DNA of 64,000 nucleotides, from positions 1,685 through 65,684 of the forward strand of contig JBGVTJ010000241.1 of the NCBI GenBank assembly GCA_041862515.1. Direction: 5' to 3'. Source of the stretch: Thermodesulfobacteriota bacterium (GTDB taxonomy: Bacteria > Desulfobacterota > BSN033 > WVXP01 > G020346125). The position numbers were made by a program, and so were the translations under genes. Below the pieces are notes generated by a model. That model saw only the letters and a program-made list of their open reading frames with translations. It was not told the DNA's origin and searched no databases. Shown piece by piece: positions 3,006-53,282 of the stretch. Numbering within the stretch: the stretch's first letter is position 1; every line of letters begins with the position of its first letter.

Positions 3006-4382
3006 ATGGAGAGAGAAAAGGTTGCACCGTTCATAAAGGTTACCCCTCCCGGCCCAAATGCGCGCAAATGGGCTCAATTTCATAAAAAGCATGCCGCTCA
3101 TTCAACGTATTTCTACGATTTTGTTTGGGATCGATCTAAACCAGCCATTGGGCCATTCTGTACGGATGTAGATGGCAATATCATCATGGATTTCGTTAGC
3201 CATGTGGCGAGCTCTCCGCTGGGCTACAACCATCCCGTTCTTGTCGAAACGGCGAAGAAAATCGCCGCAATTGACCCGGATCGATATGCCGGGACCGACT
3301 TCATCGGCGCCTTCGGCGAAGATCCCAGCAACTGTCCCATCCCGACCCCTTCCCACCTCCACCACAAGCTCATGGAGATCTCCCAACAATTCGGTTTCAA
3401 CAGCGCCTTCTTATCCAATTCCGGTGCGGAGGCGGTTGAGAACGCCATCAAGATCTGTTACGACTACCGTCGAAACCATGGATATGGCTTCTGCTTTTAC
3501 GGGGCATTCCACGGACGAACCTTGGGGGCCCTCTCCCTCAATCGGAGCAAGAAGGTTCACCGGGATTGGTATCCCGAAATCCCCAAGATCGTGGAGCTCC
3601 CCTTCTGTCGTTGCCGAAAAGGCTGCGACTGTGGTTGGAAGATATACTCCATCCGAAGGAAAGGCGTGATCAGCCGTCTGGCCCAAGTCCTCGACCCCGA
3701 TATCGGTCTTATCGACCCGGAGGAGGTGGCCTATATCATTATCGAGCCCATCCTGGGTGAAGGAGGATATGATATAGCCAATCCCGAGTTTATCCGGGAA
3801 GTGGCCGAGATTGCTCACCGCGAGGAAATCCCACTGATCGCGGACGAAATCCAATCCGGATTAGGGCGTACGGGAAAGTGGTGGGCTGTGGAACATTTCG
3901 GCGTGGTACCAGACATCATAACCTCTGCCAAGGCCTTGCGGGTGGGCGCTACCATTGGGAAGAGCACGCTCTTTCCCCGAGAGGAGAGGAGGATTTCCTC
4001 GACATGGGGCGAGGGCAATGCCATCAGCTCAGCCGTGGGCTATCAAATCATTCAGACCATCCAGGAAGAGGATTTGCTCAAGAATGCGGAGGAGATGGGA
4101 AACTACTTCCTCGCCGGTTTACGCCAACTCCAATCCCGGTTCCCCGTGATCCACGATGTTCGAGGTCTCGGGCTCATGGACGCCATCTCGGTAGAGACCG
4201 ATGACCTGCGGAACCGAGTGATTCGAAATGCCTTACAAAAGGGGTTACTGGTAACATCGTGCGGGTTCGAATCAATCCGCTTTCTCCCTCCCCTCAACGT
4301 AACCCAGAGGGAGATCGATATCGCCTTGAACATCCTCGAAGATGTCTTTTCAGAAATAGTAACCGAGCCGTCGTTACCATAA
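3006..4382 (+). CDS. Class III PLP-dependent aminotransferase (omega-amino acid / lysine-6 aminotransferase-like)
   Basis: [11 protein letters not shown] motif, PLP lysine in ITSAKAL, 458 aa; RBS GAGGAG. Confidence 0.85.
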
Positions 4383-12444: not shown

Positions 12445-13101
12445 ATGCCCGATAAGCGGAAATTTTCTCGCTTTCCCGTGACGGAAACGGTTATTTGCTC
12501 CCGTTATGGGAGAGAGGTGACCATGCGAACCCTAGATATCAGTCTTGGAGGACTGAAACTAGAGGCCAATTTCGATCTAAGGGTTGGTGAGTCCATGATC
12601 TTTTCAATTTTTACCAATAACACGAGAATAAATTGCAAGGGAAAGATCCTTAAAATAGAAGAATTTGGAAATAAGGTTCAAGCCAGGTTGTGTTTCGCTC
12701 CACCCTCGGACTGGGAATATGGGAAACTGTCTGATTATCTAAACGGCCTTTCTCGGAGACCCTTCCAAAGACGGGTAGTTGGTGACCCGGCTCTATTGCT
12801 TCGGAGAGCACTCAGGCGTGCAATGATGAAGGGAGGAAAGTGGGTAAAAAATATTTTCGACGGAAGAGAAGATGAGAAGCTGGAGCAGGTGAATTCATGG
12901 TTGGAATTACTGCCGGATATGGAGAGAACGGTGATTACCCTTCGTTTTGGTTTGGACGGGGAGGATCCTCTCACATCGGAATCCATAGGGAAACGCTTTG
13001 GCTTGCCCCCGGAAAGGACTCGTCAAATCGAAACGGAGGCCATAGAGAAACTCCGAAAGATCAGCAAAAAGAAAGAGATCTACTTGGATGATATAATCTG
13101 A
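12445..13101 (+). CDS. PilZ domain fused to a sigma-70 region 4 (ECF-type HTH) DNA-binding domain
   Basis: PilZ motifs RKFSR (RxxxR) and DISLGG (DxSxxG) at the N-terminus; C-terminal ERTVITLRFGLDGEDPLTSESIGKRFGLPPERTRQIETEAIEKLRK is a typical sigma-70 region 4; RBS AGGAGG. Confidence 0.7.
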   Translation: MPDKRKFSRFPVTETVICSRYGREVTMRTLDISLGGLKLEANFDLRVGESMIFSIFTNNTRINCKGKILKIEEFGNKVQARLCFAPPSDWEYGKLSDYLNGLSRRPFQRRVVGDPALLLRRALRRAMMKGGKWVKNIFDGREDEKLEQVNSWLELLPDMERTVITLRFGLDGEDPLTSESIGKRFGLPPERTRQIETEAIEKLRKISKKKEIYLDDII

Positions 13102-17767: not shown

Positions 17768-18084
17768 GAGCGAGCATTAAAGAATTTTTGGTAACCATTC
17801 TTAGTGCTTCGATTCGCAAATACAATGACGTATTTTCTAGAGCAAGATCTGAGCAAATGCTCACTCAGCGATAAGTCTTGAGGGCTTCGACTGAGACATG
17901 TCGACGAACTCATGTCGAGTCGCTCAGCCGAAGTCTAAATTTGTTCGTAACCGAACTTATGCATCGAAAGACTTAGTGAAGCGAAACGGTCGCAAAGCCA
18001 TTGTCTGAGCCCAGAGGGGGAGTTTTGGGTTTGCAGTGAAGCGAACCTTACGCTAGAATGATCAAAAATTCTTTTCAGAGAGCG
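17768..18084. repeat. MITE-like dispersed repeat, long copy (family 1: inverted ends ttttggtaaccattct ... agaatg..aaaaa, internal gtgaagcgaa direct repeats)
   Basis: Shares ends and internal blocks with 26895..27091, 50862..51031 and 53107..53176. Confidence 0.5.
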
Positions 18085-18472
18085 AAAGGGTATTTGGGCA
18101 ACAGCCTGTTTTATGATTTTCAATGAATTAGGTGAAATAATACCTCAATACTCTGCGATGAAGCCTCATGTCGGTCTCGGTGGCTGATGGACTGACCCCC
18201 CAGGACCATCGATGGAAACAGGGCTGTGAAATAACCCAACCCGGCCCCGGAAAAATGGTCCCACAAGGAAGACACGGTTCATAAGACAATCGATGAAATG
18301 AAAAGAAGCGGGGAGAAGCTCCGATGGACCCGGCTGGATAAATCGAACTTTTGGTCCATAGGGTGAAAAGGGGAGGAGAAAAATATGGGAATCGGATTGG
18401 GAGGGATTGGCGGAAGGACCATTGCTCCCAGTGAGATTTGGAGGCAATGAAAAGTCCTCTACGAGAGGAAAA

Positions 18473-26894: not shown

Positions 26895-27091
26895 GAGATC
26901 TCTGAAAAACTGAGAAAAATGAGCTCTGAGCGCGAATTAAGATTTTTTCGGTAACCATTCTGAGTGAAGCGAAACGACCGCAAATTCAATGTTTGAGCCG
27001 AAAAGGCGAGTTTTGAATTTGCAGTGAAGCGAACGTTAGAATGGTTGGAAAAATATTTTGAGCACCGAAGAGCGATCTTTTCAGAGATCTC
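26895..27091. repeat. MITE-like dispersed repeat (family 1), complete copy with outer inverted ends gagatctctgaaaa ... ttttcagagatctc
   Basis: Near-identical reverse complement of 50862..51031. Confidence 0.55.
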
Positions 27092-46471: not shown

Positions 46472-47341
46472 CTAGGAATTTAAATCGAGGGCTTCCTTCA
46501 TCGCCTCAACCATGGAGTAGGAGAGCCTCATATCGCTCGAGCCTACTCCGACGTCTACCTTACCGGCCTCGATGCCGTGATAATCGGAACCCCCGGTGAC
46601 CAGAAGGCCATGTTTTTCGGCAAGGCCCTTATAGAGGGAAATTTGATCCTTGGTATGTTCGGGATAAGAGATTTCAATCCCCATCAGCCCCAATTGGACC
46701 ATTTCGGCAAGCAAGGCATTCAATTGGTGGGCGGATGCGATATGTAAGGTGAATGGGTGGGCCAATACGGGAATCCCCCGCGCTTCCCGTATCAATCCCA
46801 TGGCCTCCTGGGGGTCGAAACGAAACTTGTGAACATAAGCAGGGGCCCCCTTTCCGAGATATCGATCAAAGGCCTCTTGCATGGTATTTACGTATCCCTT
46901 TTTCAACAATACTTGTCCGAAATGGGGTCTCCCGACCTGTCCTCCCCCAGAGGCTTGGAAAACTTCATCATAGCTAATCTCCACGCCCAATTCTCTGAGC
47001 TTTTGCACGATCTTTGGATTTCGTTTGGCCCTCGTTTCCTGGAGCAATGACAACCTCTCGTTTAGACCTTTATTCCCTATATCGATGAAGAACCCCAAAA
47101 TATGCATGCTTCCCAATTCGAATTGCGCGCTGATTTCAACCCCCGGGATAACCTCGAGGCTCAATCTCGCCCCTTCATCCAAGGCTTCTGCATTTCCATC
47201 AATGGTATCGTGATCGGTGATGGCGATGGCTTTCAGCCCTTTTCCCTTCGCATATCGCACAATCCTGGAAGGGGAAAGTACTCCATCAGATGCGGTAGTA
47301 TGGAGGTGGAGATCAACCCTGCCCATTATCCTTTGTTTCAT
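46472..47341 (-). CDS. PHP domain phosphoesterase
   Basis: VDLHLHTTASDG and ITDHDT His motifs. Confidence 0.8.
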   Translation of the reverse strand: MKQRIMGRVDLHLHTTASDGVLSPSRIVRYAKGKGLKAIAITDHDTIDGNAEALDEGARLSLEVIPGVEISAQFELGSMHILGFFIDIGNKGLNERLSLLQETRAKRNPKIVQKLRELGVEISYDEVFQASGGGQVGRPHFGQVLLKKGYVNTMQEAFDRYLGKGAPAYVHKFRFDPQEAMGLIREARGIPVLAHPFTLHIASAHQLNALLAEMVQLGLMGIEISYPEHTKDQISLYKGLAEKHGLLVTGGSDYHGIEAGKVDVGVGSSDMRLSYSMVEAMKEALDLNS

Positions 47342-47541: not shown

Positions 47542-48342
47542 ATGAACTCCTTAAAGCTTCTCACCCTACGGGCACTCCTCTTGATATTCTTGTCATGGGC
47601 TCTATTGTTATCCTGTAAGGGTCCTTCCATAAAACCCCTTTCGCCCCCCGAGGTAAAAGGGGAGCGATCTCCGAAACGGATTGAGCGAATCATAAATGAA
47701 AGGATCAGATCAATCCGGACCGTTGAAGGCCGTTTAACCATTGTATCGAAAGAGGGGGCACCCCCGGGCACATGTAAGGCACTTTTATTCTTTAAGAGGC
47801 CGAGCCAATTGAGGCTTAAGGGATTCCAAACACCCGGCACTCCCCTTTTCGATCTTCTGATGCAAGTGGGGCTCATCCAAGTTTATATACCGGAACAGAA
47901 TAAGGTTTTCAAGACCGATCTCGGTGAGGGCACGAAAAAACGGGGATTTGGCCTGACGCCTCTCAGTTTAATGAAGGAGATCCTCCAGGTGGGAATCGAT
48001 AAGTCCGAGGAGCTCTCTCTTTCTCAGGGCCAACAGGGTGTAATCGTGCTGAATCACCTGAAGGAGGGGAGGTTGGTGAAGAAGACCGAGATCGATGCCC
48101 GATCGCTTTTCATCAAAAGGGAAACCCTTCTCGGGGCGGGAGAACAACCATACCTCATTACCAGTTACGCCAATTACAAAAACATCGGCGGACAATGGTG
48201 GCCATTCCGCATTGAACTCCATCAACCAATGGGAGGGGAATTCATGTCCTTCGAATTTCAGAGTGTCAGCATGAACGGCCCCATCGAGTCAGATATCTTC
48301 AAGCTCGATGTACCCCCAGGCGTCATAACGGTCCATCAATAA
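47542..48342 (+). CDS. LolA-like / DUF4292-type lipoprotein
   Basis: Lipobox LLSC; beta-rich LolA-like profile; RBS GAGGA precedes the ATG at 47542. Confidence 0.5.
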   Translation: MNSLKLLTLRALLLIFLSWALLLSCKGPSIKPLSPPEVKGERSPKRIERIINERIRSIRTVEGRLTIVSKEGAPPGTCKALLFFKRPSQLRLKGFQTPGTPLFDLLMQVGLIQVYIPEQNKVFKTDLGEGTKKRGFGLTPLSLMKEILQVGIDKSEELSLSQGQQGVIVLNHLKEGRLVKKTEIDARSLFIKRETLLGAGEQPYLITSYANYKNIGGQWWPFRIELHQPMGGEFMSFEFQSVSMNGPIESDIFKLDVPPGVITVHQ

Positions 48343-48547
48343 CCCAGCAACGATCTATCCCTTTACTCCTTCTTTTTTTCTGTAGCCTGCAGCGAATATC
48401 CTCGATGAGGTAGATCCCCGGCTAAATCTCACACTTCTTGACCGCTATAATAACGTCCTGATAGCTCAAAGGGTTCAGCAAATCCAAAATGAATTCAGTG
48501 GCTCCCTCGAAGCCTCATTGGATAGGGGACGCGTATGCGATTTTTCA

Positions 48548-50812
48548 TCACGGGATGTTTTTGCAGAGTGAACCCAACGACCCCTCTTTTTCGTGTTTCT
48601 GGGAGAAATCGACCAATCTACGCAAAAGGCTCATATCATAACCGAAGGGGATAAGTACCTCCTCGGCCGCCTTCAGGAGGAGCTCCGTGTATTTCTCCTC
48701 GTCATATCCATCCTCGGGCCCGATAAGGGGGGCCGCCCTTACCCGATCTTCTTTCACCTTGGATCTCGCATCCCTGATGACATAGGGGACTCTCTCCCCT
48801 GGGTGAATCTGAACCCCGACATCTTCCAATTGCTGGGTTGCCAGGGCGGTGAGGTTGTCTACCTTGTAATCCGAGGGGTCTTGGGAGAGGGTCTTGGAAA
48901 TCACCAGCTCTGAAGGCTCCACCTCGCCGGTTCTCAATTTTAACACGAAATCGAGGAGGACCTCGAAGACTTCGGGGATCTTCGACCGATACCCATCCAC
49001 ATCCTTTGCCCGTGACAATACCTCAAGCATGCTGAGCTGAGCCTCCCTAATCATCGCTGGCATATCGCTTCTCCGAAAGGCCAACCCCCTCGCCTTGATC
49101 TCCCCATCCTCGAATAGGCCGAAGTATCGATTGGCCACGGAAAGCTCCGGCTTGACTCTGGAGGGCAGAAAGACCATCCATCGGTAGATCCCCTCCAAGT
49201 TCATGGGAATTCCCGCCTCTCGGGTAATCTCCTCGCAGAGGACCAGGACTTCCCCTTCGGTGAGGCTATCCTTGCTGATCCATAGGGAATCCGTAATGGC
49301 GTGAATGAGTCGGAAGCCCCTCCTCTCCCCGATCTCCTTAGCTTGAAGCAATTTCTCTCTGCCGAAGGCGGTTACCGCCTCGTGGGCCTCGATCCGCCCG
49401 AAGCGGGCATTACGATACCCTAAGTAGCCAAATGACGTGACGAGTATCCACTTCAGTGCGATATGGCGTCGGCGATAGTTTTCACCCCTCTGCCCTCCCA
49501 TCTTCTTGCTCATTTCCTTCAGCATCCGGCGTCTTCGAAGAATAGGCTTAAGGGTTCTTGGGATCAGTCCCTCCCTCTTCTCGCAGATGTTGTATCCCGC
49601 CTCGGGGACCCTGCTATTGGAACAACAGGCGCAGAGGACGGTCTCTGGGGAGATGTTGTGAACGGCCATAATGGTGGGATACATGGAGGCGAAATCGATC
49701 TCCGCGATATCCTTATGGATCCCCTGGGGAGGTTGAAAGACCAACCCGCCTTTATCCGCAACTAAGAGGTCCCATGCCGTCTTGAATTTCTCGGGTTCGC
49801 CCTTTCGCCATGGGATGAGAATCCCTTCGCCAAAGGCACGATCCAACTGCATCGAGGTGATAATCGTTCCGGGGGAGGTTCTCGCCGTTCGTTGGACGGG
49901 GACTTTGGAAAGTCTAGCCAAATCGATGATCCCCTCAAACCCCGATTCCCCGAAGAGAAAGGAGTTTGCTCGATCGATATGCCATCTCCCAAAGAGGGGG
50001 TAGGCCGGGCTATGGTAAAGGATACGGCCGTAGGAGAAATAAGAGCGCCCCTTCAGGTCGGGAATTCGGTGGACGAGACCTGGCTCCCGGTCCAGGATCA
50101 GGGGGATCTTTTCCCTCCGACTCATCCTGACCGAAGAGGGGACGATGTGGGAATCACCGTGTTCGGTGAGAATCACATCCGGGTCAAACCTCTCCAGAAG
50201 GGCGTTGATCTGGAGTGGCACGTCGGAGGGCAATTGGGGATCGATCTCCAACCGGTATCCCTCACATTCCACTACCAGAGTATTCCCCCGCCCGAAGGGG
50301 AGCAGGGGATTTCCCTCTATGCGGATCTCCATGATCCGAAGGGGAGGGAGGGTGTACTCGATCTCCCAAGAGGAGCATCGGGGTTCTATCCTCAGGACAC
50401 GGCCATCTTCATGCTCCACCCAGCAGCGTCCCGTGGGAAAGAGGCCTTTCTCATAGAGATAAGATTGGGCCAGGGGGATGTCGCAGTTATAGAAGGTGAT
50501 CCGATCCTCGAAACCCGCCAGCAGCCTAAAAAGTCCGGGCACATGGTCGGAGGATCCCATCTCCAGATCCAGTACATCCATCTCCTGCCCGCTCCAGAAG
50601 TCCTGCTTCCGAGCCCATCCGAATCCGAGAAGGAGCCGCCGCTTCCTTAGCAAGCGCAAAAGTTCCTCTAGGTCTTCTTTCCGGCCTCGGGCGTAAATGT
50701 GATGTCGATAGGGGTCCTCTAACCGGAGCATCCCGCCGTTATCACCATAGATCCACAGGACCATGGCCGACTGCCACGGATAGACATCGAAAAGCCAACC
50801 CTCGGTTTCCAT
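48548..50812 (-). CDS. polB: Family B DNA polymerase (archaeal-PolB/Pol II-like) with degenerate 3'-5' exonuclease motifs
   Basis: Motif A DFASMYPTIM (DxxSLYPS), motif B KWILVTSFGYLG (KxxxNSxYG), motif C HAITDS (YGDTDS-like, first Asp absent); N-terminal domain resembles archaeal PolB; the expected Exo I FDIET reads MEIRIE and Exo II reads TEHGDSH. Confidence 0.8.
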   Translation of the reverse strand: METEGWLFDVYPWQSAMVLWIYGDNGGMLRLEDPYRHHIYARGRKEDLEELLRLLRKRRLLLGFGWARKQDFWSGQEMDVLDLEMGSSDHVPGLFRLLAGFEDRITFYNCDIPLAQSYLYEKGLFPTGRCWVEHEDGRVLRIEPRCSSWEIEYTLPPLRIMEIRIEGNPLLPFGRGNTLVVECEGYRLEIDPQLPSDVPLQINALLERFDPDVILTEHGDSHIVPSSVRMSRREKIPLILDREPGLVHRIPDLKGRSYFSYGRILYHSPAYPLFGRWHIDRANSFLFGESGFEGIIDLARLSKVPVQRTARTSPGTIITSMQLDRAFGEGILIPWRKGEPEKFKTAWDLLVADKGGLVFQPPQGIHKDIAEIDFASMYPTIMAVHNISPETVLCACCSNSRVPEAGYNICEKREGLIPRTLKPILRRRRMLKEMSKKMGGQRGENYRRRHIALKWILVTSFGYLGYRNARFGRIEAHEAVTAFGREKLLQAKEIGERRGFRLIHAITDSLWISKDSLTEGEVLVLCEEITREAGIPMNLEGIYRWMVFLPSRVKPELSVANRYFGLFEDGEIKARGLAFRRSDMPAMIREAQLSMLEVLSRAKDVDGYRSKIPEVFEVLLDFVLKLRTGEVEPSELVISKTLSQDPSDYKVDNLTALATQQLEDVGVQIHPGERVPYVIRDARSKVKEDRVRAAPLIGPEDGYDEEKYTELLLKAAEEVLIPFGYDMSLLRRLVDFSQKHEKEGSLGSLCKNIP

Positions 50813-50861
50813 GCTCCCACGGAGAGTTTGATCTCCACTCCGGTTACGGTTTATACCTTAT

Positions 50862-51031
50862 GAGATCTCTGAAAAAGTCGCTCTTCGCTGCTCAAAATAT
50901 TTTTCCGACCATTCTAGAGTTCGCTTCACTGCAAATCCAAAACTCGCCCTTTGGGCTCAGCCATTGGATTTGCGGCCGTTTCGCTTCACTAAGAATGGTT
51001 ACCGAAAAAATCTTTAATTCGCGCTCAGAGC
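50862..51031. repeat. MITE-like dispersed repeat (family 1), inverted copy between the 119-aa ORF and polB
   Basis: Reverse complement of 26895..27091 with a few substitutions. Confidence 0.55.
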
Positions 51032-51118
51032 TTCCTTTTCCAGTTTTCCAGGAATCCCCAACTTTGAACTTTGACATTGACTCTCGTGTTCGGGTTTCGT
51101 GTCCGTGTCCGTTATAAG

Positions 51119-51478
51119 TTATTTGTCATTTGGATTTTGAACTTTGACATTTCCCTTTTCGCCTCTCCCCTCTGACCTCAAACGCCTTTCGCCTTTCTCT
51201 GATGGAGAGGCTGTCTTGCCCGCCTCCTCCTCCATCCTCTTACACTTTGCCCTGAGCTCCTCCAATGCCTTATGGTGCTCTAACAGGATGGAAATCAGTA
51301 TCGCCTCCAGGGGCCAGGGACGGGAGGCGTAGACCCCCGCCTGCACGTGGAGGCGCGCCAGGTCAAAGAGACGATCGAAGGCCTTCTGATCCTCCTTTCT
51401 CAATCCTCGGCGAAACTTCTTCCACTCGGTGTATTCCCGTTCCAAAACCTGGCTATAGGGGAGAACCGTCCTACCCAC
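51119..51478 (-). CDS. Hypothetical helical protein (119 aa) in the lexA cassette
   Basis: Start overlaps the upstream ImuA-like gene by 8 nt (operon-style coupling); no family recognised. Confidence 0.45.
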   Translation of the reverse strand: MGRTVLPYSQVLEREYTEWKKFRRGLRKEDQKAFDRLFDLARLHVQAGVYASRPWPLEAILISILLEHHKALEELRAKCKRMEEEAGKTASPSEKGERRLRSEGRGEKGNVKVQNPNDK

Positions 51479-52190
51479 CGATATGCCCCCTCTTGCCCAA
51501 ACCCCTCAGCGGAAGTCGCTGAGATCTCAGAAGCTTCCCCCCTCCTTCCGTTCTCAACGGTCTCTCCAAAACCAGCTTCAATCTCCCTCCCTCCCTCATC
51601 GTCCTCACGACCATGTCCGACCAACGGGAGAGTCGTCTCAAGAGATATCCCCTGCGGCTTCTGGAAGGAACAGGGGGTTGCATCAAAAGAAAGGGAAGTC
51701 CCCTCGGGTTGAGCTCATCGAGTTTCGCGAGCATTCCCCGGAAAAGGAGATTCACCTCCTGCTCGGGAATATCCTCATCGAGCAGCGTAGTGATGGGACC
51801 AAGCAGGATGACCAATGGATTTTGATGGGAGTCTATCATCGCTTCCAACCGTTCTCGAACCAAGGTGAAGAGTTGATAGCAGGTAAAGGCCCTGGCAACG
51901 ACGATCTCCTTGAGGAGATGAGCGGGAGCCAGGCAATGTCTCCTCGCAAAACGGGAGACGATATAGGGGTCAAAGCCGTTTGCCCCGTCCACGAAGATCG
52001 GCTTCATCCCCGATGCCGCCACAAGGCCGGCCAGATAGGAAGACAAAACCACTGTTCCTTCCCCCCAGAAGAGGGTCTTCGCGAAGGGCGTACGGGAATG
52101 ATTCCATTCTCCCAAGCCCAGGAGATCGAAGACGTTGATCCCGCCAAACCGCTCGGGCAGACTGTGCGACTCTTCCCTTTCCCCTTTCAC
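51471..52190 (-). CDS. ImuA/SulA-like inactivated RecA-fold protein
   Basis: RadA/RecA core pattern (KPIFVDGANGFDPYIVSRFARRHCLAPAHLLKEIVVARAFTCYQLF...LVILLGPITTLLDED) but the Walker A position reads GEGTVVLS (no GKT/S); 6 nt downstream of lexA. Confidence 0.5.
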   Translation of the reverse strand: MKGEREESHSLPERFGGINVFDLLGLGEWNHSRTPFAKTLFWGEGTVVLSSYLAGLVAASGMKPIFVDGANGFDPYIVSRFARRHCLAPAHLLKEIVVARAFTCYQLFTLVRERLEAMIDSHQNPLVILLGPITTLLDEDIPEQEVNLLFRGMLAKLDELNPRGLPFLLMQPPVPSRSRRGYLLRRLSRWSDMVVRTMREGGRLKLVLERPLRTEGGGKLLRSQRLPLRGLGKRGHIGG

Positions 52191-52196
52191 CCTGCC

Positions 52197-52808
52197 TCAT
52201 ACCCTCCTGAAGATCCCGATGACCTTACCCAGAATTTGAAAACCCCTGTCCCCCTCCCTCACCGTAACCGCCTCCCATGCCTCGTTGTCTGGTTTGAGGA
52301 GCACCTCGTCCCCTTTGAGAAAGAATCGTTTCACCGTTGCCTCGTCATCGATCAGGGCGACGATCACATCGCCGTTATCGGCGGAGGGTTGACAGCGAAT
52401 CAAGACGTAATCTCCCGGGAGAATATAGGGAGACATGCTCTCCCCCTTCGCCCGCAACAAGAAGACCTCTTTCCCCTCTGCCCAATCCCGTGCTAAGGGA
52501 ACGACTTCCTCGATATTTTCCACGGCCAGGGTAGGTTTTCCGGCCGCCACCCTTCCCAAGACGGGAACCTCGCGAATGGAAATCCCAGGCCTCCTTCCGG
52601 TGAAATCCAGGATCTCGATGCCACGGGATTTGGTTTGCCTCCGCCTCAGGTATCCCTTCCTTTCCAGGGCTTTGAGGTGATCGAAGGCTGCCCTGGGATA
52701 GATGTCGAAATACCGGCCGATCTCCCTCACGGAGGGAGGGTAACCGCTTTCCAGGGTGAACTCCTTTACGAAATCCAGAATCTCTCTCTGCCGAGGGGTT
52801 AGATTCAT
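52197..52808 (-). CDS. lexA: LexA repressor (S24 peptidase with N-terminal wHTH)
   Basis: REILDFV...PPSVREIG HTH; cleavage and catalytic motifs VAAG, GESM (Ser), VKRF (Lys); start at the ATG at 52808 with RBS GGAGG. Confidence 0.9.
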   Translation of the reverse strand: MNLTPRQREILDFVKEFTLESGYPPSVREIGRYFDIYPRAAFDHLKALERKGYLRRRQTKSRGIEILDFTGRRPGISIREVPVLGRVAAGKPTLAVENIEEVVPLARDWAEGKEVFLLRAKGESMSPYILPGDYVLIRCQPSADNGDVIVALIDDEATVKRFFLKGDEVLLKPDNEAWEAVTVREGDRGFQILGKVIGIFRRV

Positions 52809-52835
52809 TGCTTTTCCTCCCTTTTCCCCAAAGAT

Positions 52836-52853
52836 ACTATACATATGTTTAGT
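52836..52853. promoter_or_regulatory. Candidate LexA operator (SOS box): 16/18 palindrome ACTATACATATGTTTAGT, Cheo-box-like core ACATATGT
   Basis: Lies 28-45 nt upstream of the lexA ATG; palindromicity read directly from the sequence. Confidence 0.4.
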
Positions 52854-53048
52854 TGTCAAGGGAAAAATTTAGTGGACTTTCCCCAACATTTTGGGAGGTG
52901 GTGAGGTAAGTTATTGAAAAACAATGATAAACAAATAAAAAGAAGTGGAAATGGAGGTTTCTCCTATGGTAGAGGAGTTTCTGAAGCTTCCTGAGATTTA
53001 CAAGGAGTATTTTTGTAACTTGGTGATCATATGGCAAATTTTACTTTT

Positions 53049-53282
53049 CATAAGTGAACACCGTTGTCCCCTCGGTTGCTCACGGTCTGTTGCCTTAATT
53101 TCCTTTCGCTCACTGAAAAGAATTGTGGACAATTCTAGAGTTCGCTTCACTAAGAATGGTTAACCAAAATTCTTTCATGTTCCCTCCAGGGAACCAGGGC
53201 AACGGCCTGTTTCGACGTTACCCTTCTCAAGCAAATTTGGCTCATGGACAACGCTGTTCGCCCAGAAACTCAGGAAACTCCT
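53049..53282 (+). repeat. Chimeric element C: terminal-helix ends of structured-element family 2 (same ends as the 55681..55910 copy) enclosing a fragment of MITE family 1 (53107..53176)
   Basis: 5' cataagtgaacaccgttgtccc and 3' ggacaacgctgttcgcccagaaactcaggaaactcc match the ends of copy B; the core differs. Confidence 0.4.

Follow-up and report, generated by a model that had tools for sequence, protein, structure and literature searches.

A probable LexA-controlled PolB2 mutasome operon in a Thermodesulfobacteriota MAG

Introduction

A cassette headed by lexA in a Thermodesulfobacteriota MAG raises the question of whether a family-B DNA polymerase can stand where ImuB and DnaE2 are found in the imuA-imuB-dnaE2 mutagenesis cassette, as the original prediction for this DNA had proposed, or whether the genes belong to another system. 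We have analysed the cassette within a window of 64,000 nt (contig JBGVTJ010000241.1) and conclude that it is very probably a LexA-controlled bacterial PolB2 mutasome operon.

The arrangement had been thought uncharacterised, but it has already been described. Makarova, Krupovic and Koonin (2014, PMC4104785) reported lexA, an inactivated radA, arCOG07300 and an 'inactivated' PolB2 in Leptospirillum ferriphilum (LFML04_0990-0993); Timinskas et al. (2025, PMC11791011) analysed bacterial iRadA-PPB2-PolB2 operons, found lexA to be enriched nearby and modelled the complex as a heteropentameric mutasome; and a 2026 survey of bacterial polymerases places the PolB2 group as G2 (PMC12926913). Several gene orders of the operon are known in archaea and one in bacteria, and Cdc6 (Orc1/Cdc6) is enriched near the archaeal operons (PMC11791011). 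As summarised in the same paper, archaeal Dpo2 is damage-inducible, and with the equivalent IID substitution it is an active extender polymerase needed for targeted mutagenesis; another paper describes it as a translesion-synthesis extender (PMC8764526). In the literature searched, we found no experimental study of bacterial PolB2 or its operon.

Organization of the locus

The four ORFs of the original prediction were all confirmed, at the coordinates it gave and all on the minus strand (Table 1). They had been called tightly spaced, and this holds for two of the three junctions, as lexA and the 239-aa gene are 6 nt apart and the latter overlaps the start of the 119-aa gene by the predicted 8 nt, but not for the third, where 306 nt separate the 119-aa ORF from the polymerase gene. 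The corresponding PPB2-PolB2 junction is only about 45 nt long in the close relatives L001 and L002. The G+C content of the cassette (0.53-0.54) is slightly higher than that of the flanks (about 0.50), and its neighbours in the window are housekeeping genes (ResB, PHP, Usp, PitA, MetRS and others).

Table 1. Features of the lexA-iRadA-PPB2-PolB2 locus (positions in the window)
Feature	Position	Strand	Remarks
lexA	52197..52808	-	203 aa, from ATG 52808; RBS GGGAGG at 52821-52816
iRadA, catalytically inactive RadA/Rad51 homologue (predicted)	51471..52190	-	239 aa, GTG start
PPB2 (arCOG07300 family)	51119..51478	-	119 aa, GTG start
PolB2, archaeal-type family-B DNA polymerase, exonuclease domain probably degenerate	48548..50812	-	754 aa
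Promoter with embedded putative LexA-type operator	52831..52859	-	sequence inspection, palindrome search, promoter scan
Dispersed hairpin repeat (MITE/REP-like), inserted	50862..51051	-	inside PPB2-PolB2 spacer 50813-51118

A survey of genomic neighbourhoods, which had been suggested for the co-occurrence of lexA, an imuA-like gene and polB, gave the order lexA-iRadA-PPB2-PolB2 in all 13 related loci with enough upstream DNA. LexA, iRadA, PPB2 and PolB2 all split into the same three clades; the genes flanking the operon differ in distant relatives, and close ones keep the synteny of the downstream flank. Haloarchaeal loci, whose copies are on megaplasmids, have the same three-gene order, with Cdc6 preceding instead of lexA. 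We have also observed the three-gene cassette iRadA-PPB2-PolB2 in Leptospira LE1-like phages, which is possibly new.

LexA, promoter and operator

The canonical LexA expected at the head of the cassette is borne out by a match to TIGR00498 of 200.8 bits (cut-off 110.95) and by matches to PF01726 and PF00717, and the Ala-Gly cleavage site (GRVAAGKP), the Ser (GESMSP) and the Lys (TVKRF) can all be read in its translation. The start of lexA is almost certainly the ATG listed in Table 1, which has GGGAGG in front of it; the longest ORF opens with a TTG at 52859, but this codon belongs to the -35 hexamer TTGACA (52859-52854). Between this hexamer and the -10 element TATCTT (52836-52831), the 18-bp palindrome ACTAAACATATGTATAGT (52853-52836, minus strand) exactly occupies the 17-nt spacer, and the promoter scan gave a score of 10/12 with a spacer of 17 nt. 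The palindromic operator that lexA had been predicted to own is real as a palindrome, lies inside the promoter and is unique in the window, where about 0 chance matches are expected for the full 18-mer.

In all 12 related loci with an examinable promoter, a single 18-bp palindrome fills the TTGACA/TATnnT spacer before lexA. This architecture occurs once per locus, upstream of lexA, with no other copy in the 196 kb of these 12 loci, and the operator arms co-vary symmetrically between clades. One sigma-70-type promoter precedes lexA-iRadA-PPB2-PolB2, with a palindromic putative operator in its spacer. The operator may be new, because the descriptions that we found in the literature mention lexA enrichment but no operator. 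As a separate observation, also possibly new, orphan PPB2 genes have been found behind the same operator in metagenomes.

The three partner proteins

The 239-aa protein had been assigned to ImuA/SulA on the basis of GEGTVVLS at its Walker A position. The reading itself is correct and lacks GKT/S, so that an intact ATPase, which would have spoken for ordinary RecA or KaiC paralogues, is not present. The proposed profile search against Pfam and NCBIfam (E <= 1) gave weak matches to Rad51, RadA and Dmc1 models only and nothing named ImuA or SulA, although these libraries may hold no ImuA model. The top 50 PDB fold matches of its AF2 model (pLDDT 78) were without exception RadA, Rad51, Dmc1 or Rad51-paralogue complexes. 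Neither the Walker A GKT/S nor the Walker B Asp was found in 49 homologues, and iRadA has a RadA/Rad51 fold without ATPase motifs. In hhalign, a profile of iRadA relatives matched the RadA-like gene of a haloarchaeal PolB2 operon with 89% probability (E 2e-6), which only suggestively points to homology with that partner. On these models, folds and alignment, we have rejected the ImuA/SulA assignment.

PPB2 consists of an N-terminal MGRT arm followed by three helices (7-25, 28-46 and 57-89 in the AF2 model). Homologues have PF26485 as their precomputed domain. In 49 homologues, G2-R3-T4 and V5-L6-P7 are invariant and follow either M or a start encoded by GTG. Its homology to haloarchaeal PPB2 (VGRTNPTF...) is clearly supported by the hhalign comparison (98.4% probability, E 8e-15).

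The 754-aa polymerase was rightly placed in family B (PF00136). The best NCBIfam models are of archaeal type (NF004416, 419 bits; NF004418, 376 bits), and the protein is nearer to archaeal PolB enzymes than to Pol II. Its alignment with haloarchaeal PolB2 (33-38% identity) runs from end to end and clearly supports homology to that protein; the bacterial enzyme has an extra segment of about 35 residues in the exonuclease-like region. Motif C reads ITD in place of DTD here and [ILV]TD in 40 of 40 homologues (IVD in haloarchaea), whereas no variation is seen in the motif A Asp (D373), the motif B Lys (K454) or the second Asp of motif C; D241-R242 is conserved, and conservation is high in the palm and fingers. 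Exo I and Exo II lack conserved acids among the 40 homologues, which suggests that the exonuclease has been lost; this rests on non-conservation in a weak alignment of the domain (14 bits) and not on a confident structural alignment. With a simple regex, we saw no canonical beta-clamp-binding motif at the C-terminus of iRadA or PolB2 in this clade.

Comparison with known systems and alternative readings

All testable defining sequence features of the PolB2 operon were found at this locus, that of exonuclease loss on the weak alignment just mentioned, and the locus is a typical case of an operon that comparative genomics had already brought to light. With the bacterial operons of Leptospirillum, Timinskas et al. 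and group G2, it shares the four genes, the order reported for bacteria, the substituted DxD, the degenerate exonuclease motifs, the ATPase-dead iRadA, the MGRT arm and the adjacent lexA; nothing essential differs, and this copy has the repeat insertion, a longer PPB2 tail and, by the regex, no canonical clamp motif. The archaeal PolB2/Dpo2 operon (Sulfolobus islandicus Dpo2; haloarchaeal megaplasmids) is a homologous three-gene unit whose small gene begins with MGRT from a GTG start in archaea and bacteria alike. Across the two domains, motif C reads IID, IVD or ITD, and in the archaeal copies that we examined the neighbouring regulator, where present (L020), is Orc1/Cdc6 and not LexA.

If the polymerase had replaced ImuB and DnaE2 in a variant of the imu cassette, the 239-aa protein would be an ImuA homologue. 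Both cassettes are LexA-controlled and multigenic, with an inactive RecA-superfamily protein beside an error-prone polymerase, and they are functionally analogous; however, the 239-aa protein matches only RadA, Rad51 and Dmc1 models at E <= 1, with its top fold matches of the same kind, no Y-family (ImuB) or C-family (DnaE2) gene is present, alignments with archaeal PolB2 operons cover all three genes, the MGRT protein included, and the literature treats the operon as a separate archaeal-derived system (PMC11791011, PMC4104785). The imu cassette combines a RecA-lineage ImuA, Y-family ImuB and C-family DnaE2, whereas here a RadA-lineage iRadA, PPB2 and a B-family PolB2 form a separate unit of archaeal origin, and we regard the two as analogous, not homologous, and the replacement as very unlikely. 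An ordinary, accurate Pol II-type SOS polymerase adjoining lexA by chance has next to no probability. E. coli Pol II (PolB group G1) is likewise of family B and LexA-repressed (background in PMC12926913), and has been called a translesion-synthesis extender, but it consists of one subunit, proofreads with an active exonuclease and carries a QLGLF clamp motif, and its similarity to our polymerase is weak. The NCBIfam Pol II models score <= 56 bits (cut-offs 570-1435), the exonuclease DEDDy residues are not conserved and iRadA and PPB2 always accompany the gene, which refutes both this reading and that of a housekeeping Pol II.

Makarova et al. (2014, PMC4104785) discussed an earlier hypothesis in which PolB2 is catalytically dead and the complex serves a purpose other than synthesis, such as regulation of replication or restart, or processing of stalled forks. 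The replaced first motif C Asp in 40 of 40 homologues and the non-conserved exonuclease acids favour this, but the invariant catalytic residues, the conserved palm and fingers and the activity of Dpo2 with its IID (as summarised in PMC11791011) argue against it, and we consider it unlikely. A module for replication or maintenance of a mobile element (phage, plasmid or casposon-like), as opposed to chromosomal repair, would fit the phage and megaplasmid copies and the slightly raised G+C. Yet the neighbours are housekeeping genes, close relatives show synteny on the downstream side, the window has no integrase, terminal protein, cas1 or inverted terminal repeat, PADLOC gave nothing relevant, and LexA control suits a host damage response; we give this possibility very little weight.

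Predicted function

An SOS-inducible translesion or mutagenesis module, as the original prediction had suggested, is the most plausible reading of the LexA-headed PolB2 operon. On the basis of established LexA biology, archaeal Dpo2/PolB2 work and published AlphaFold models, LexA would occupy the operator in undamaged cells and block RNA polymerase; upon DNA damage, RecA-ssDNA would trigger its self-cleavage, and the four genes would be co-transcribed. PolB2 would then be joined by one iRadA and by PPB2 as a trimer, one MGRT arm of which would insert between PolB2 and iRadA, close to the DNA. This complex, presumably without proofreading, would extend primer termini that are mismatched or lie opposite lesions, so that damage is tolerated at the cost of mutations, until fresh LexA from the same transcript represses the operon again.

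According to published models (PMC11791011), the E. coli Pol V mutasome (UmuD'2C-RecA) follows the same structural principle, with the polymerase binding to a RecA/Rad51-family protein via an oligomerisation-like motif and the N-terminal arm of a small subunit inserted near the active site. Pol V is also SOS-controlled, but it uses a Y-family catalytic subunit, a UmuD' dimer and active RecA, in contrast to the PPB2 trimer and dedicated dead paralogue of the PolB2 complex.

A hairpin repeat between PPB2 and PolB2

The C-terminal tail of PPB2 is about 8-11 aa longer in this genome than in close relatives, and the spacer that follows contains a repeat of about 190 nt, 89.5% identical to 26902-27091, with further copies at 17972-18086 and, shortened, at 53128-53178. 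The repeat folds with -59 kcal/mol (z = -5.5), has no match in Rfam, and is not followed by a terminator-like T-run. L001 and L002 lack it, with their homology resuming at 50861, and the repeat is an insertion that does not belong to the conserved operon. Its presence between PPB2 and PolB2 in this genome, possibly a new detail, could lower the expression of the polymerase.

Identity of the locus

The four-gene locus headed by lexA is an ordinary member of the known bacterial PolB2 mutasome operon, because the defining features of that operon (gene order, motif C, dead ATPase and MGRT arm) are all present. The original prediction described four co-directional genes on the minus strand, and ORF calling bore this out; the tight spacing that it reported holds for the first three genes, with a gap of 6 nt between lexA and the 239-aa gene and an overlap of 8 nt between the latter and the 119-aa gene, but the polymerase lies 306 nt beyond the 119-aa gene. 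The arrangement had been thought uncharacterised, whereas comparative genomics and structure modelling had already described the system (PMC4104785; PMC11791011). In archaea and several bacteria, Makarova, Krupovic and Koonin (2014; PMC4104785) connected PolB2 to an inactivated RadA and to arCOG07300, and for Leptospirillum ferriphilum they explicitly set out a locus of four genes that includes lexA. The partners received their new names, iRadA and PPB2, from Timinskas, Timinskas and Venclovas (2025; PMC11791011), who reported only the iRadA-PPB2-PolB2 order in bacteria and found lexA enriched next to the bacterial operons and orc1/cdc6 next to the archaeal ones. They also recognised the MGRT arm and the D(K/R) motif, and their model of the complex is a PolB2:iRadA:PPB2(3) heteropentamer with a PPB2 trimer and a PolB2 beta-alpha motif mimicking RadA oligomerisation. 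In a 2026 survey the group appears as bacterial PolB G2 (PMC12926913). Our literature search found no experimental study of the bacterial PolB2 system. The residual novelty of the locus lies in small details, namely the operator, a repeat, an orphan PPB2 and a phage cassette, together with the question of a dedicated LexA.

Coordinates of the features discussed (window numbering unless an accession is given)
Feature	Position	Strand	Remark
lexA	52197-52808	-	
iRadA gene	51471-52190	-	239 aa
Conserved iRadA tail	51471-51545		close relatives only
PPB2 gene	51119-51478	-	119 aa
PolB2 gene	48548-50812	-	754 aa
Candidate LexA operator	52853-52836		
Dispersed repeat, ~190 nt	50862-51051	-	inserted in the PPB2-PolB2 spacer
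Repeat copy	26902-27091	+	
Repeat copy	17972-18086	+	with fragment 17768-17806
Shortened repeat copy	53128-53178	-	
61-aa ORF (rejected)	50892-51077		in the PPB2-PolB2 gap
PHP-domain phosphoesterase	46472-47341	-	two genes downstream of PolB2
PilZ/sigma-70 region 4 protein	12445-13101	+	218 aa
Natrononativus amylolyticus operon (L020)	NZ_CP101459 1392-5620		Cdc6-iRadA-PPB2-PolB2; Cdc6 gene first
Leptospira phage LbrZ_5399 cassette (L021)	KF114879 3192-6448		iRadA (197 aa), PPB2, PolB2 (818 aa); no lexA

The neighbourhood survey covered 18 related loci from species-representative genomes (Thermodesulfobacteriota, Syntrophales-type MAGs and one NC10 MAG), and the co-occurrence lexA-iRadA-PPB2-PolB2 was found in 13 of the 13 loci that had enough upstream DNA. 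The order iRadA, PPB2, PolB2, co-directional and adjacent, is kept in the window and in every related locus with all three genes, which are these 13 with lexA upstream and one more (L016). Flanking genes are common only to the closest relatives, and the window's own cassette is flanked by housekeeping genes. G+C is 0.53-0.54 across the cassette (48001-52000) and about 0.49-0.51 in the neighbouring 10 kb, a small excess that is compatible with foreign origin. The sole PADLOC match was to a polymerase-containing 'homing endonuclease' model, and no defence system was found by this program.

The polymerase and its partners weighed against other families

The polymerase matches PF00136, and its best NCBIfam models are those of archaeal-type 'type B DNA-directed DNA polymerase' (NF004416, 419 bits; NF004418, 376 bits). 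An E. coli-type Pol II (PolB G1) was another family-B candidate, but the E. coli Pol II models of NCBIfam gave at most 56 bits, which is below their cut-off, the DEDDy residues are not conserved and the C-terminal QLGLF is missing, and we rejected this identity. The best PDB relatives are Pyrococcus and Thermococcus PolB; as judged from these matches, the profile scores and the haloarchaeal identity described below, the enzyme is assigned to the archaeal PolB2/PolB3 lineage and not to the Pol II lineage. Motif C reads HAITDS in the window, and all 40 homologues have I, L or V in place of its first Asp, never giving D-T-D, while D508, D373 of motif A and K454 of motif B are invariant in the same 40. 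The exonuclease-domain alignment is weak (14 bits); within it, the window has R/E, and most homologues have E/H, at the positions aligned with the D/E of Exo I, and I or L occupies the position aligned with the Exo II Asp, so that, on this 14-bit alignment, the 3'-5' exonuclease active site appears to be lost. In D241-R242-E243, D is kept in 39 of 40 homologues and both R and E in 40 of 40, and the haloarchaeal PolB2 proteins have G-R aligned with D241-R242. By its position, D241-R242 would be the published D(K/R) motif of the PPB2-arm loop.

The 239-aa protein had been assigned to the ImuA/SulA family, which we could not sustain. Its family matches in Pfam and NCBIfam (E <= 1) are weak and go exclusively to Rad51, RadA and Dmc1, no ImuA-named model appears at that threshold (the libraries may hold none), and its AlphaFold2 model (pLDDT 78) has top 50 PDB matches that are all RadA, Rad51, Dmc1 or Rad51-paralogue complexes. 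An ImuA-ImuB-DnaE2 mutasome was likewise rejected, there being no ImuB or DnaE2 and the other two genes encoding PPB2 and a family-B polymerase. The letters GEGTVVLS, earlier read at the Walker A position, are indeed found in the translation, where FWGEGTVVLSS stands in place of GxxxxGKT/S; VILLGP, with LLGP in place of hhhhD, stands at Walker B. An intact ATPase was not seen: the protein has neither the Walker A GKT/S nor the Walker B Asp, and the same is true across 49 homologues. The Walker positions were placed by comparison with P. furiosus RadA and by a partial alignment. In the model, the protein begins directly with the core strands and has no N-terminal helical domain. The window protein is named 'hypothetical protein ACETWT_12725 [Thermodesulfobacteriota bacterium]' in NCBI.

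The 119-aa protein gave no match in the local Pfam and NCBIfam libraries. It begins with MGRTVLPY, in which G2-R3-T4-V5-L6-P7 is invariant in 49 homologues and in every related locus, and its model predicts three helices behind an N-terminal arm that is free, as suits PPB2, a family of three-helix proteins of ~90-120 aa. PF26485 is the precomputed Pfam domain on all listed PPB2 homologues (P0121-P0240); our Pfam scan of the window PPB2 did not return it, and the model is possibly missing from the scanned copy of Pfam.

Only some members have a clamp-binding motif in iRadA or PolB2, which is no strict criterion of the system. The regular expressions QL[x]LF, Qxx[LMI]xF and QLxLxL matched none of the window proteins, and gave 3 matches (in 3 proteins) in the C-termini of 240 homologues. 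The C-terminus of iRadA carries a conserved clade-specific tail, SQRLPLRGLGKRGHIGG, of the form (S/F)QRLPLR(G/D)LGKRG(H/Y)IGG, which is no canonical beta-clamp motif; its conservation may be at the nucleotide level, because it overlaps the ribosome-binding site and GTG start of PPB2.

Archaeal and phage counterparts

A tblastn search of plasmids with the polymerase matched 105 records; judged by genus name, most by far are haloarchaeal. The polymerases of the haloarchaeal operons are 33-38% identical to the window PolB2 over 70-87% of the length, align with it end to end and have IVD as motif C. On megaplasmids of Halobaculum magnesiiphilum (L019) and Natrononativus amylolyticus (L020), genes for 'hypothetical protein' of about 235-250 aa and about 93-101 aa precede the polymerase gene. 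The archaeal PPB2 genes start with GTG (VGRTNPTF), as does the PPB2 gene of the window. When compared by hhalign, the archaeal small proteins matched the bacterial PPB2 profile with 98.4% probability (E 8e-15), and the larger protein matched the iRadA profile with 89% probability (E 2e-6). The archaeal homology of the three proteins thus stands on direct alignments to haloarchaeal operons; these leave the homology of PPB2 and PolB2 clear, and that of iRadA suggestive.

The three genes were also found on the Leptospira phage LbrZ_5399, whose PolB2 is 36% identical to that of the window, and the same three-gene cassette without lexA is present in the LE1-like phage/plasmid genomes KF114878, KF114880 and KX656785. 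The PPB2 gene of LbrZ_5399 is annotated from an internal Met at 3841, and a start giving MGRTIQPY lies at 3724.

LexA and a candidate operator within its promoter

A canonical LexA with its own palindrome had been proposed, and both were found: the protein scores 200.8 bits with TIGR00498 (equivalog cut-off 110.95) and also has the winged-helix DNA-binding and S24 peptidase domains (PF01726 and PF00717). The start codon is almost certainly the ATG at 52808, preceded by the ribosome-binding site GGGAGG; the TTG at 52859 belongs to the -35 box. The translation carries GRVAAGKP, GESMSP and ATVKRF, as in all relatives, and by comparison with E. coli LexA these hold the Ala-Gly cleavage site and the Ser/Lys dyad. 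The palindrome ACTAAACATATGTATAGT exactly fills the 17-nt spacer between TTGACA and TATCTT, and such a position inside the promoter would imply promoter occlusion. Among the 12 loci with upstream sequence, each has exactly one promoter TTGACA-[ACTnnnCAnnTGnnnAGT]-TAtnnT, always upstream of lexA and nowhere else in their 196 kb.

Three versions of the palindrome occur across the loci, ACTAAACATATGTATAGT, ACTAAACAAATGTATAGT and ACTCATCAAATGATGAGT, and both arms change together. The versions track three clades that are recovered equally by LexA, iRadA, PPB2 and PolB2. Such co-variation is what would be expected of the operator of a dimeric repressor co-evolving with the repressor, and makes the palindrome a candidate LexA operator. 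It agrees at only 13 of 17 positions, by our own count, with the M. xanthus box CTRHAMRYBYGTTCAGS (PMC9705874). The LexA of the NC10 MAG (L017) is 81-82% identical to those of two 'Deltaproteobacteria' MAGs (L007 and L012) and shares their operator, whereas the PolB2 proteins of the same genomes are only 61-62% identical; the contrast may come from a transfer of the cassette across phyla, from MAGs that are mis-binned or loosely named, or from a far stronger constraint on LexA.

A promoter scan revealed no second operator or convincing promoter before iRadA, PPB2 or PolB2, and a single LexA-repressed transcript would therefore be the simplest reading. A search of the whole window gave no operator copy except the site at lexA, and no recognisable SOS gene (e.g. 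recA or uvrA) was seen among the window ORFs scanned, so that the window is compatible equally with a global and with a dedicated LexA.

The same operator outside the cassette

Metagenomes were scanned with the exact-arm operator of clade 3, the window itself having the clade-1 version. The clade-3 operator was found on at least 120 contigs and, among the matches listed, a -35 box abuts it in 46, of which 17 precede a lexA cassette, 13 a stand-alone PPB2 and 4 an IS91-like transposase. The stand-alone PPB2 (MGRTVMPYSHV...) lies directly behind a TTGACA-operator-TATTCT promoter and is followed by no lexA, iRadA or PolB2 (L023, L030, L033, L037, L047, L056, L061, L076, L117, L125, L130, L134 and L136). 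It is 52-69% identical to the PPB2 queries from the window and L012, and the operator centre is TATG in most cases. These sequences suggest that the orphan gene may be a second source of PPB2 subunits controlled by a LexA box. The genes that follow at L130 resemble those of membrane permeases. The transposase lies within about 60 nt of the same promoter and operator at L050, L106, L062 and L028 (probably also L118), and we take it to be IS91-like from its zinc-binding N-terminus MLSAPATVYRPRN...CRDCSHEYLLAFSCKRRHFCPSC; either it is LexA-controlled or the IS was inserted behind a cassette promoter.

A more far-reaching reading is that lexA and its promoter-embedded operator (ACT-N3-CA-N2-TG-N3-AGT) belong integrally to, and co-evolve with, a self-contained module, which moves between lineages, is seen on phage-plasmids without lexA, and has a small dedicated regulon including the stand-alone PPB2 (perhaps to supply the 3:1 PPB2 stoichiometry) and possibly the IS91-like transposase, this LexA not being the general SOS repressor of the cell. 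We regard this reading as rather unlikely.

Proposed mechanism and meaning

The sequence analysis shows the identity and architecture of the operon; its function, as we infer it, would be as follows. LexA would repress the operon until RecA-ssDNA triggers its self-cleavage; the three proteins would then be produced at the same time and form the complex of the published PolB2:iRadA:PPB2(3) models; and PolB2, having no proofreading, would extend termini that are mismatched or lie opposite a lesion, in the manner of archaeal Dpo2. Damage-inducible expression is suggested indirectly by the presence of lexA among the genes and by the site of the candidate operator within the promoter. The activity of Dpo2 is summarised in PMC11791011, and PMC8764526 describes it as a translesion extender. 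Of the proposal of an SOS translesion or mutagenesis module with an ImuA-like protein, the SOS translesion module is retained, but the family is changed to iRadA.

The PolB2 mutasome is a predicted multisubunit family-B translesion polymerase passed from archaea to bacteria, which rewired it from Orc1/Cdc6 control to LexA control. The present locus adds no new kind of system, only a further member, which comes from an uncultured Thermodesulfobacteriota MAG. As long as iRadA and PPB2 carry the annotation 'hypothetical protein', the cassette will be found anew by automated readers. The conserved operator within the promoter provides a concrete, testable predicted LexA site for these lineages, and the orphan PPB2 behind the same operator suggests that the mutasome regulon and its subunit supply reach beyond the operon.

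A hairpin repeat and other features of the window

The intergenic repeat between PPB2 and PolB2 has long terminal complementarity and is predicted to fold into one hairpin (-59 kcal/mol, z = -5.5). Rfam gave no match over the whole window, and the repeat therefore belongs to no known RNA family; with its strong hairpin, it looks MITE- or REP-like. The close relatives L001 and L002 lack the insertion, which is present in this genome only. The 61-aa ORF was rejected as an extra gene, since it lies on the repeat and has no family match. About 270 nt separate the shortened copy from the lexA promoter downstream of it; a further copy is found just upstream of an mgsA/rarA-like gene.

The PHP-domain phosphoesterase gene is probably unrelated to the cassette, because it is syntenic in close relatives (L001, L002, L004 and L018) and not in distant ones. 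The 218-aa protein has a PilZ domain at its N-terminus and, at its C-terminus, the helix-turn-helix of sigma-70 region 4, and may be a c-di-GMP-responsive transcription factor.
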